In this document: positions 50,560-51,325 of the stretch, in pieces
Layout of the letters: every line of letters begins with the position of its first letter
How positions within the stretch are numbered: position 1 is the first letter of the stretch
NCBI GenBank assembly: GCA_944386635.1
Contig: CALXBV010000029.1
Span: forward strand, 8,896-72,895
Length of the DNA: 64,000 nucleotides
From: an uncultured Clostridia bacterium
Lineage (GTDB): Bacteria > Bacillota > Clostridia > TANB77 > CAG-465
Direction of reading: 5' to 3'
Translations under genes and position numbers: made by a program
Notes under the pieces: model-generated
Told to the model about the DNA's origin: nothing
Database searches by the model: none
What the model saw: the letters and a program-made list of their open reading frames with translations, nothing else

Positions 50560-50763
50560 ATGGAGGATATTAATTTGGCAAAAAAAATTGAAGATATATC
50601 AAGATTTATAAAAGAAATAAAATTTAAAAAAAAACTTTTTGGTGGAGTAGATGAGCTTGATGTTTGGAATAAAATTGATAGTTTAAATTCAGAATATAAA
50701 GAATTATATGAAATACAACAAACAAAAATAAATATTCTAGAGGAAAAACTAAATGAAAAATAA
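50560..50763 (+). CDS. DivIVA-domain mini-protein (67 aa), translationally coupled to the downstream signal-peptidase homologue
   Basis: FKKKLFGGVDELDVWNKIDSLNSEYKEL fits the DivIVA N-domain consensus (F.K..RGYD..EVD.FLD.V..DYE.L), followed by a coiled-coil region. Its stop overlaps the downstream ATG (ATGAAAAATAA). Confidence 0.5.
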   Translation: MEDINLAKKIEDISRFIKEIKFKKKLFGGVDELDVWNKIDSLNSEYKELYEIQQTKINILEEKLNEK

Positions 50764-51325
50764 AAGTAAAAATAAAATAGATAATAGCATATCTATTCTA
50801 CCAGAAAAGGTAATAAAGCAAAGAAGAAGACAGGTACTAGAAAGGCAAGATATGGCAAGCTTTTTTAAAAAGTTTGTATGTATTGTAATATGTGTATATA
50901 TAATATTTAGTTTTATATATGGAATTGTATTTGTAGAAGGTCAAATAATGTATCCTTCTATAAGAGATGGAGATATTGCAATATATTTTAGATTAGATTC
51001 TAATTATCAAGTTGGAGATGTAGTATCTGTAAGAAAAAATAAAGAGAGTTATATATCGCGTATTGTTGCTCGTGAGGGCGACGTAGTAGATATAACAGAA
51101 GATGGTGAACTTCTAGTTAATGGTAATGTACAACAAGAAGATATATATTTTTTAACTTATCCAGATAGTAATGGAGTTACATTTCCTTATAGAGTAGATA
51201 AAGGTTGCATATTTGTTTTAGGAGATTTTAGAACTGGTGCAGTTGATAGTAGACAGTTTGGACAAGTATCGGAAGATGAAATAGAAGGAAAAGTTATTAC
51301 TGTTATACGTAGAAGAGGATTTTAA
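50753..51325 (+). CDS. Signal peptidase I homologue lacking the catalytic Ser/Lys dyad (SipA-like pilus assembly factor)
   Basis: Aligns to SPase I boxes, but box B reads VEGQIMYPSI (Ile replaces the catalytic Ser of SMxP) and box D reads YISRIVAREGD (Ser/Arg replaces the catalytic Lys of KRVIGxPGD). Box E GDFRTGAVDSRQFG is retained. Has an N-terminal cytoplasmic extension and one TM. Confidence 0.7.
   Translation: MKNKSKNKIDNSISILPEKVIKQRRRQVLERQDMASFFKKFVCIVICVYIIFSFIYGIVFVEGQIMYPSIRDGDIAIYFRLDSNYQVGDVVSVRKNKESYISRIVAREGDVVDITEDGELLVNGNVQQEDIYFLTYPDSNGVTFPYRVDKGCIFVLGDFRTGAVDSRQFGQVSEDEIEGKVITVIRRRGF

Follow-up and report, generated by a model that had tools for sequence, protein, structure and literature searches.

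A signal peptidase I homologue lacking the catalytic dyad and resembling SipA in a pilus locus of an uncultured Clostridia bacterium

In Streptococcus pyogenes, the signal peptidase homologue SipA (SipA/LepA) is essential for pilus polymerisation, has no peptidase activity and possesses a conserved peptide cleft (streptococcal literature), and the mutation of its former catalytic positions had no effect (Young et al., PMC4049620). The gene order adhesin, sipA, fctA, class B sortase and fctB is strictly conserved in FCT-2/3/4 (Young et al. 2014, PMC4049620), and the way in which SipA helps the class B sortase has been recognised as a question still to be answered (Young et al. 2014, PMC4049620; 2021 review of the group A Streptococcus pilus). 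The necrotic-enteritis locus of Clostridium perfringens VR-10B, which comprises CnaA, FimA and FimB along with a 'signal peptidase' and a sortase of class B, and in which the authors see synteny with the streptococcal loci, already shows that such loci occur in Clostridia (PMC8088525). Similarly to the locus studied here it has three pilins, a class B sortase and a signal peptidase homologue; the latter is likened by its description only, the paper containing no discussion of a dead enzyme (PMC8088525).

Here, we analysed a gene of this type, designated sipA-like (50753..51325, + strand), which lies in a stretch of 64,000 nucleotides (the window; 27% G+C) from an uncultured Clostridia bacterium (GenBank assembly GCA_944386635.1, contig CALXBV010000029.1). 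We propose, with a probability of about 85%, that the sipA-like protein is a membrane-anchored, non-catalytic pilus assembly factor of the SipA/LepA branch. This family identity is already known in kind, and the sipA-like gene adds an uncultured gut Clostridia host.

Catalytic boxes, membrane anchor and N-terminal extension

The features of the sipA-like gene and of its product are as follows.

50753..51325, + strand: sipA-like, dyad-less type I signal peptidase homologue (Pfam, NCBIfam, alignments, AlphaFold, dN/dS)
50753..50863, + strand: K/R-rich N-terminal extension, predicted to be cytoplasmic, residues 1-37, with the conserved motif SILPEKVIKQRRRQVLE (conserved in the relatives P0001-P0015)
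50864..50935, + strand: predicted single transmembrane (TM) anchor, approximately residues 38-61 (Kyte-Doolittle 19-residue windows up to 2.81)
50939..50962, + strand: box B, GQIMYPSI, residues 63-70 (HMMER and MAFFT)
51050..51082, + strand: box D, YISRIVAREGD, residues 100-110 (HMMER and MAFFT)
51221..51262, + strand: box E, GDFRTGAVDSRQFG, residues 157-170 (MAFFT, family comparison)
51308..51322, + strand: C-terminal RRRGF motif (family alignment)

The open reading frame (ORF; stop codon included in the coordinates) starts with an ATG and encodes a protein of 190 amino acids (aa). Its S26 homology is far beyond chance, as it matched the Pfam family Peptidase_S26 (PF10502) at 1.9e-21 and the NCBIfam model TIGR02227 at 1.1e-27 (96.9 bits for a cutoff of 47). 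As TIGR02227 is an equivalog model for 'signal peptidase I', a score above its cutoff means that automatic annotation will name the sipA-like protein an active signal peptidase. No second S26 homologue was found in the window when all six-frame ORFs of at least 60 aa were searched with phmmer, the query finding only itself. Identical or near-identical copies of the gene are confined to metagenome assemblies from gut and animal sources that bear the label 'uncultured Clostridia bacterium', and a tblastn search of the PLSDB plasmids for annotated SipA-like genes returned only ordinary lepB genes (33-37% identity).

The correspondence of residues was established with HMMER alignments to two active enzymes of solved structure, 4nv4 (the Bacillus anthracis signal peptidase) and 4wvg (Staphylococcus aureus SpsB), and with a MAFFT alignment of 24 sequences, which gave the same register. 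In box B, 'veGkSMmPTl' stands opposite 'veGqIMyPSi', the nucleophile serine being replaced by Ile65 (codon ATA, 50945-50947), and in box D, 'dYvKRIiG' stands opposite 'sYiSRIvA', the general-base lysine being replaced by Ser102 (codon TCG, 51056-51058). Both losses had been read by eye in the first-pass annotation of the window, and they hold in both types of alignment. Box D (K-R-x-x-G-x-P-G-D) is further altered by the changes of Gly to Ala106 and of Pro to Glu108. No alternative register placing a Ser/Lys pair in the sipA-like protein was found in the alignments to the solved active enzymes, i.e., these hold no true boxes B and D elsewhere. By contrast, the description of box E as intact stood only in part: as compared with G-D-N-R-x-x-S-x-D-S-R, the sequence GDFRTGAVDSR keeps G157, D158, R160 and D165-S166-R167, but the Asn of the GDN triplet is replaced by Phe159, and the equivalent of the Escherichia coli Ser278, which stabilises the catalytic Lys145 (Young et al. 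2014, PMC4049620), by Ala163.

Since the Ser-Lys dyad and the lysine-stabilising serine are all lost, the sipA-like protein is expected to be unable to cleave signal peptides, in agreement with its first description as a catalytically dead signal peptidase I homologue. In E. coli LepB, replacement of the catalytic lysine abolishes activity. The IFA↓V and VFA↓V sites of the pilins themselves (the arrow marks the cleavage position) are presumably cut by a housekeeping signal peptidase encoded elsewhere. Meanwhile, the strands that form the cleft align without gaps, and their hydrophobic residues V59, M66 and I101 are kept.

As proposed earlier, an extension of about 35 aa precedes the TM segment: residues 1-37 are K/R-rich and conserved, and residues 38-61, approximately, are hydrophobic. 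The positive charges read from the sequence flank the TM segment on its N-terminal side, and the predicted topology has the N-terminus inside and the domain outside. In the AlphaFold model described below, one helix covers residues 17-54, the extension being continuous with the TM segment. The consensus SILPExVIKQRxR of the extension is kept in relatives of 54-91% identity, and the ratio of non-synonymous to synonymous substitution rates (dN/dS) of this region, calculated against the Clostridia locus L003, is 0.17. The conserved motif and this low ratio indicate that the extension is translated. The alternative start at Met34, which is preceded by GAAAGG 6 nt upstream, was rejected, since protein-level conservation extends over residues 12-33, with the same ratio, independent gene calls use the first ATG, and GAGG sits 9 nt ahead of the latter.

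The length of the extension is ordinary for the family: box B lies at position 65 in the sipA-like protein, at a median position of 89 (maximum 396) in 150 family representatives, and at positions 48 and 61 in the FCT-3 and FCT-2 SipA, respectively (PMC4049620). Many family members (P0083-P0229) have N-terminal regions of 100-350 aa before the TM segment, predicted to be cytoplasmic and often of low complexity (rich in Pro, Gln, Ala and Lys). At the other end of the protein, R186, R187 and R188 occur in 142, 120 and 136 of the 150 representatives, respectively, so that R-R-R-G-[FIL] is a C-terminal signature of the family; S. pyogenes SipA ends with RVRG, and the active signal peptidases of the loci L006, L008 and L009 (see below) end differently.

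The sipA-like gene is under purifying selection, N-terminal extension included. Its gene-wide dN/dS is 0.13 against L003 (dS 0.95) and 0.2-0.3 against two other Clostridia loci, L004 and L005, and the reading frame is unbroken in every homologue.

Relationship to SipA and to the dyad-less family

The assignment to the SipA/LepA type, also made in the first-pass annotation, is supported by the fold, the loss of the dyad, the closest solved protein and the operon order, which all agree. First, the closest solved sequence is that of S. pyogenes SipA (4n31; E 3e-30, 137 residues aligned without gaps, about 36% identity), followed by the truncated SipA/LepA 4k8w (5e-28), while the best active signal peptidase reached only 2.5e-11. 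Second, the AlphaFold model, built from 39 sequences (mean predicted local distance difference test, pLDDT, of 80.5), comprises the helix 17-54 followed by an all-beta domain, for which Foldseek returned, in that order, 4n31 (E 3e-14, TM-score 0.87-0.90 on the target, root-mean-square deviation 2.0 Å), SpsB, E. coli LepB and LexA/UmuD. The predicted fold thus matches LepB, the overlay suggested at first, but SipA is the better match. Third, a neighbour-joining tree grouped all dyad-less proteins, S. pyogenes SipA included, into one clade in 124 of 200 bootstraps, so that their common descent appears to be moderately supported.

The likeness to SipA/LepA (4n31, 4k8w; Zahner & Scott 2008, Nakata 2009, Young 2014) extends to the S26 fold with a small cap domain, the loss of both the dyad and the Ser278 equivalent, the single N-terminal TM anchor, the basic C-terminal strand (RVRG in SipA, RRRGF here), the location of the gene between those of the tip adhesin and the FctA-type pilin, with a class B sortase and an FctB-type base pilin downstream, and the xxPTG-type sorting signals. 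The two proteins differ in that FCT-3 SipA has Asp and Gly at the dyad sites, whereas the sipA-like protein has Ile and Ser; Gly157 (E. coli Gly272), kept here, is Asn140 in SipA; the box B loop reads INTNDM in SipA and VEGQIM here, closer to the active enzymes; and the N-terminus is 17 residues longer here than in FCT-3 SipA. The streptococcal cpa, sipA, fctA, srtC, fctB array has no counterpart of the additional 67-aa gene coupled to sipA-like (Young et al. 2014). The host, too, is different: not a streptococcus but an uncultured bacterium of the gut Clostridia, of low G+C content. As for the active signal peptidases (4nv4, 4wvg SpsB and the Bacillus subtilis SipS type), they share with the sipA-like protein the fold, the scaffold of boxes B-E and the membrane topology, but all four of Ser, Lys, the lysine-stabilising Ser and the Asn of GDN are replaced in the sipA-like protein, which also has a shorter segment between boxes D and E, and the RRRGF C-terminus.

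A profile search of 1.84 billion cluster representatives showed that the dyad-less family comprises 903 clusters at E<=1e-30. The 150 best representatives include 147 that lack the lysine and only two that possess both Ser and Lys. In 39 close relatives, obtained by a word-indexed search, the lysine column holds S, G, Y, A, R or Q but never K (0/39), while the serine column across the family holds D, N, S, I, A, T, Y or G. Invariant in the 39 relatives are M66, P68, G73, D74, R103, A106, D158 and D165-S166-R167. Variable catalytic positions in a strict scaffold are the pattern expected of a protein that has given up catalysis but still needs its fold, and the free variation at the serine column fits the finding that the dyad positions of SipA do not matter (PMC4049620). 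Most of the family is, like the sipA-like protein itself, probably called active by automatic annotation.

The dyad-less relatives whose loci were examined (L003-5, L007, L008, L013-16, L020) all adjoin FctA/DUF7601 pilins, and a sortase is present at each locus except L016, for which the upstream DUF7601 protein is the only one named by Pfam. They include distant relatives beside FctA/DUF7601 pilins and small sortases in a Clostridiales metagenome-assembled genome (MAG), in Desulforamulus aeronauticus and at four metagenomic loci. In L014 (1..10200), the cassette lies between Rep3, ParA/ParB and an integrase, and in L015 (1..14456), it has a family A DNA polymerase and numerous unnamed genes in its vicinity. 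Some SipA-like pilus cassettes are thus apparently on mobile DNA, a setting that suggests their horizontal spread.

Two family members, P0151 and P0201, are single polypeptides comprising a class B sortase (TIGR03064, 4e-57 and 6e-56, respectively), a TM segment, a K/R-rich cytoplasmic linker, a second TM segment and a Lys-less signal peptidase domain; the gene of P0201 directly follows a DUF7601 pilin gene. A search with P0201 yielded about 60 distinct full-length fusion clusters of 457-516 aa, 44-84% identical. The fusion set (P0151, P0201 and P0230-P0288; loci L017 and L020) comes from ENA, JGI and Logan assemblies, on contigs of up to 68 kb. The His and Cys motifs of the sortase occur in 56 of 60 fusions, and the signal peptidase lysine in none of 60, being replaced by arginine in 58. 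The recurrence of this fusion argues that the sortase and the dead signal peptidase domain work as one physical unit on the outside of the membrane, which in vitro pull-downs performed with soluble SipA failed to reveal. Our literature search found no description of sortase-SipA fusions, which is not a proof that they are undescribed.

The pilus operon and the upstream 67-aa gene

The genes surrounding sipA-like are as follows.

42419..45049, + strand: tip adhesin, N-terminal part (signal/anchor, Listeria-Bacteroides Flg_new repeats; Pfam Flg_new 2.9e-18)
45124..50508, + strand: tip adhesin, C-terminal part, in a Cpa-like position (Pfam Cna_B 6e-234 over 12 stretches, MucBP, DUF7601)
50560..50763, + strand: conserved 67-aa (or 62-aa) protein, predicted to be a cytoplasmic helical hairpin/coiled coil (homologues, AlphaFold, dN/dS)
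51381..52577, + strand: FctA-type backbone pilin, 398 aa (Pfam FctA, DUF7601; TIGR03786)
52595..53326, + strand: class B pilus sortase, 243 aa, His131 (GHH) and Cys226 (LSTC) (TIGR03064 8.8e-59)
53342..53923, + strand: FctB-like basal pilin, 193 aa, with a Pro-rich tail (Pfam FctA 1.7e-9; TIGR03786 4e-11)

The order is thus adhesin (42419-50508), 67-aa ORF, sipA-like, FctA-type pilin, class B sortase and FctB-like pilin. The pilus-locus setting, which had been claimed from the letters of the window, is borne out by the Pfam, NCBIfam and solved-structure matches of the neighbours. The block is kept in three Clostridia MAG loci (L003-L005), and its flanks are ordinary metabolic genes. The backbone pilin has a signal peptide ending with SIFA↓VN (51381..51460) and a TAPTG sorting signal, and its best solved relatives are the S. 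pyogenes T-antigens 8f70, 6bbt and 6n0a; a scan for [WY][PLV]K[NDTS] found no YPKN pilin motif in it. The sortase is of class B and not of class C (TIGR03064, 198.7 bits for a cutoff of 153.75), and its best solved relative is S. pyogenes Spy0129 (3psq, 9e-49). The basal pilin matches the S. pyogenes FctB structures 3klq and 8k6t, with an EVPDTS sorting-like motif and a signal peptide ending with NVFA↓VK (53342..53420).

The adhesin, a single ORF of approximately 2550-2590 aa in L003, L004 and L005, is split in the window by a 1-nt deletion near 45049: when the DNA is aligned to L003, one base is missing at the stop codon. There is no homopolymer run at the site (45040..45130), and the frameshift could mark a genuine pseudogene or a phase-off variant, or else result from an assembly error. 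The product of 45124..50508 carries an ISPTG sorting signal at residue 1760, followed by a TM segment and a K/R tail. At the other end, the sequence TNVFENF, which lacks a small residue at -1, comes after the N-terminal hydrophobic segment (42419..42530), and L004 has a similar sequence (KNVFVNF); the anchor of the adhesin may stay uncleaved, or the protein may require a different processing. A scan of 41800-54200 for promoters and terminators was uninformative in this AT-rich DNA (95 promoter-like sites for 106 expected); a TTGATG-17-TATAAT site with an extended -10 TG lies just ahead of the adhesin start (42347-42375), but no significance can be claimed for it. An Rfam scan of the whole window gave no matches.

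The stop codon of the 67-aa ORF overlaps the start of sipA-like by 11 nt (ATGAAAAATAA), which implies that the two genes are translationally coupled. Copies of the 67-aa protein, 64-82% identical, occupy the same position in L003-L005; the database holds 40 homologues, all unnamed; the dN/dS is 0.22 against L003; and AlphaFold predicts two helices (pLDDT 84). P0110, found on two contigs, is a fusion that carries the 67-aa domain N-terminally to a dyad-less signal peptidase homologue. Together, these data suggest that the 67-aa protein may be a cytoplasmic partner for the N-terminal extension. Despite a resemblance by eye, its identification as DivIVA was rejected: Pfam PF05103 remained below threshold (E 0.019, 15.4 bits for a cutoff of 28), NCBIfam gave no match, a 7-sequence profile found no DivIVA/GpsB chain in the Protein Data Bank, and Foldseek, run on a single-sequence model, returned only generic helical hairpins (E > 2).

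It is worth noting that the FKKK-x-GG-x-DE-x-DVW-x-KI motif of the 67-aa protein also opens coiled-coil proteins of 190-260 aa encoded directly upstream of active signal peptidases in Lachnospiraceae (L006), D. aeronauticus (L008, 4355..4936) and Bulleidia (L009). These N-extended enzymes are the nearest active relatives in the tree. They resemble the sipA-like protein in the RI(V/A)A stretch of box D, where they too have an Ala, and in their N-terminal extension, which is rich in K/R and has a motif like that of the sipA-like protein; the product of their upstream gene shares the motif of the 67-aa protein. They differ in keeping Ser and Lys and in the larger size of the partner protein, and the L009 pair stands outside any pilus locus. 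In D. aeronauticus DSM 10349 (L008, 3625..12932), the coiled-coil protein and the active-type signal peptidase (GQSMIPSF / LIKRIVAVPGD) occur together with, after the adhesin, a Lys-less SipA-like paralogue (DASMAPSV / QVRRVIATAGD), a pilin, a class B sortase, an FctB-like pilin and a second sortase. SipA-type proteins may have arisen through an intermediate stage of the kind represented by this locus.

Two Ruminococcus MAGs (L010 752..1608 and L011 4003..4818) encode active signal peptidases (GASMTPTL / LIKRVVGLPGD) with a different small protein upstream (MTDKELRKLRRSDLIEILYYLSRENDELRE...) and giant surface proteins of more than 2400 aa downstream. This is another arrangement of a dedicated signal peptidase linked to an adhesin.

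Proposed role and alternative explanations

By analogy with SipA, we propose that the sipA-like protein would have three parts: a cytoplasmic N-terminus, about 37 residues long and rich in K/R, then a single TM helix, and a compact extracellular domain of the signal peptidase fold, which would retain the strands forming the peptide-binding cleft without catalysing cleavage. Its task at the surface of the membrane would be to assist the assembly of the pilus encoded by the surrounding genes, and there it could hold a peptide segment of a pilin precursor, or the sortase itself. The lid-less class B sortase (52595..53326) would then join the xxPTG signals (ISPTG of the adhesin and TAPTG of the pilin) to the lysine of the next subunit, and the same sortase would polymerise the FctA-type shaft and add the FctB-type base.

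Several points weigh against this proposal. First, the clade uniting the dyad-less proteins with SipA has only the moderate bootstrap support given above. Second, the identity to SipA (36.5%) is no higher than that to the active clostridial signal peptidases of L006 and L009 (39%, a value measured over a longer alignment that takes in the N-terminus). Third, in vitro, SipA did not bind pilin, sortase or peptides (Young et al., PMC4049620), so that a scaffolding or peptide-binding step is unproven even for the type member. Fourth, the frameshifted adhesin means that the operon may not make a complete pilus here, and the organism is known from metagenome assemblies only. We infer from homology and context that the sipA-like protein is needed for polymerisation and devoid of peptidase activity, and we likewise infer its binding to peptides and its contact with the sortase.

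A further step, which we regard as possible but doubtful, is that SipA-type proteins would be the non-catalytic subunit of a two-part class B sortase pilus polymerase, and would have evolved from active signal peptidases dedicated to their locus and equipped with a cytoplasmic docking module. A two-part polymerase is consistent with the approximately 60 fusion clusters; the docking module, with the N-terminal extension and coiled-coil partner of the active enzymes in L006, L008 and L009, and with the coupled 67-aa protein of the window, fused to the dead signal peptidase in P0110; and the origin from active enzymes, with the co-occurrence of active and dead paralogues in the Desulforamulus locus. 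If this reading is true, the extension and the small protein would position or gate pilus assembly from the cytoplasmic side. To our knowledge, no such cytoplasmic positioning layer is known for the streptococcal SipA.

A variant of the non-catalytic reading, to which we give a small chance, makes the dead signal peptidase a decoy or antagonist that would shield the signal-peptide-like anchors of the sortase and/or the adhesin from the housekeeping signal peptidase, thereby keeping them tethered to the membrane. There is a precedent in Actinomyces, where SafA protects SrtA from LepB2 and controls the membrane retention of the sortase and pilus assembly (PMC9282373). The analogy is functional, SafA being a small sortase-linked membrane factor that is needed for pilus assembly and interferes with signal peptidase processing; it is, however, an unrelated protein without the S26 fold, linked to a housekeeping class E sortase. 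A shielding role would account for cleft strands that resemble those of active enzymes (VEGQIM vs VEGKSM; SYISRIVA vs DYVKRIIG), for an adhesin anchor followed by NVFENF without an AxA-type site when both pilins have IFA↓V or VFA↓V, and for fusions that hold the two domains together at the membrane, but no AxA-like site is evident by eye after the TM segment of the sortase. The deletion of sipA in S. pyogenes, which leaves monomeric pilin in the wall and no polymer, points to a defect at the polymerisation step, and fits the decoy and the assembly factor alike.

That the sipA-like protein is still a peptidase of pilin precursors, acting through non-canonical residues (Ser69, Ser102 or Ser166 with another base), is very improbable. 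The fold and the cleft are kept, Ser166 and Arg103 are invariant, some pilus-locus signal peptidase homologues of Streptococcus suis and Streptococcus agalactiae are reported to have an intact dyad, and an active-type paralogue stands beside the pilus genes in Desulforamulus L008. Nevertheless, the invariant residues M66, P68, G73, D74, R103, D158, D165, S166 and R167 are structural residues of all signal peptidases, and the family has no invariant nucleophile/base pair of its own, position 69 being S, A, R, M or G and position 102 being S, G, Y, A, R or Q; furthermore, S. pyogenes SipA lacks peptidase activity and tolerates mutations at the equivalent sites. Lastly, a functionless, decaying remnant of a locus-encoded signal peptidase, as the lost catalytic residues and the frameshifted neighbouring adhesin gene might suggest, is hardly credible given dN/dS values of 0.13-0.3 against three diverged loci with a dS near 1, a frame intact in every homologue, hundreds of family clusters in which structural residues are invariant and the C-terminal RRRG is conserved, and the repeated fusion of the domain to an intact sortase.

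Returning to the non-catalytic assembly factor of the SipA/LepA branch, our findings mean that the SipA system is not a streptococcal speciality but part of a large family in gut Clostridia. As genes of this type will be named active through TIGR02227, the counts of signal peptidases in Firmicutes genomes will be inflated. The main value of these observations lies in the breadth of the family and in the fusions of a class B sortase with a dead peptidase, which give the testable prediction that both domains form one complex at the membrane, and thereby make the mechanism of SipA more directly testable.

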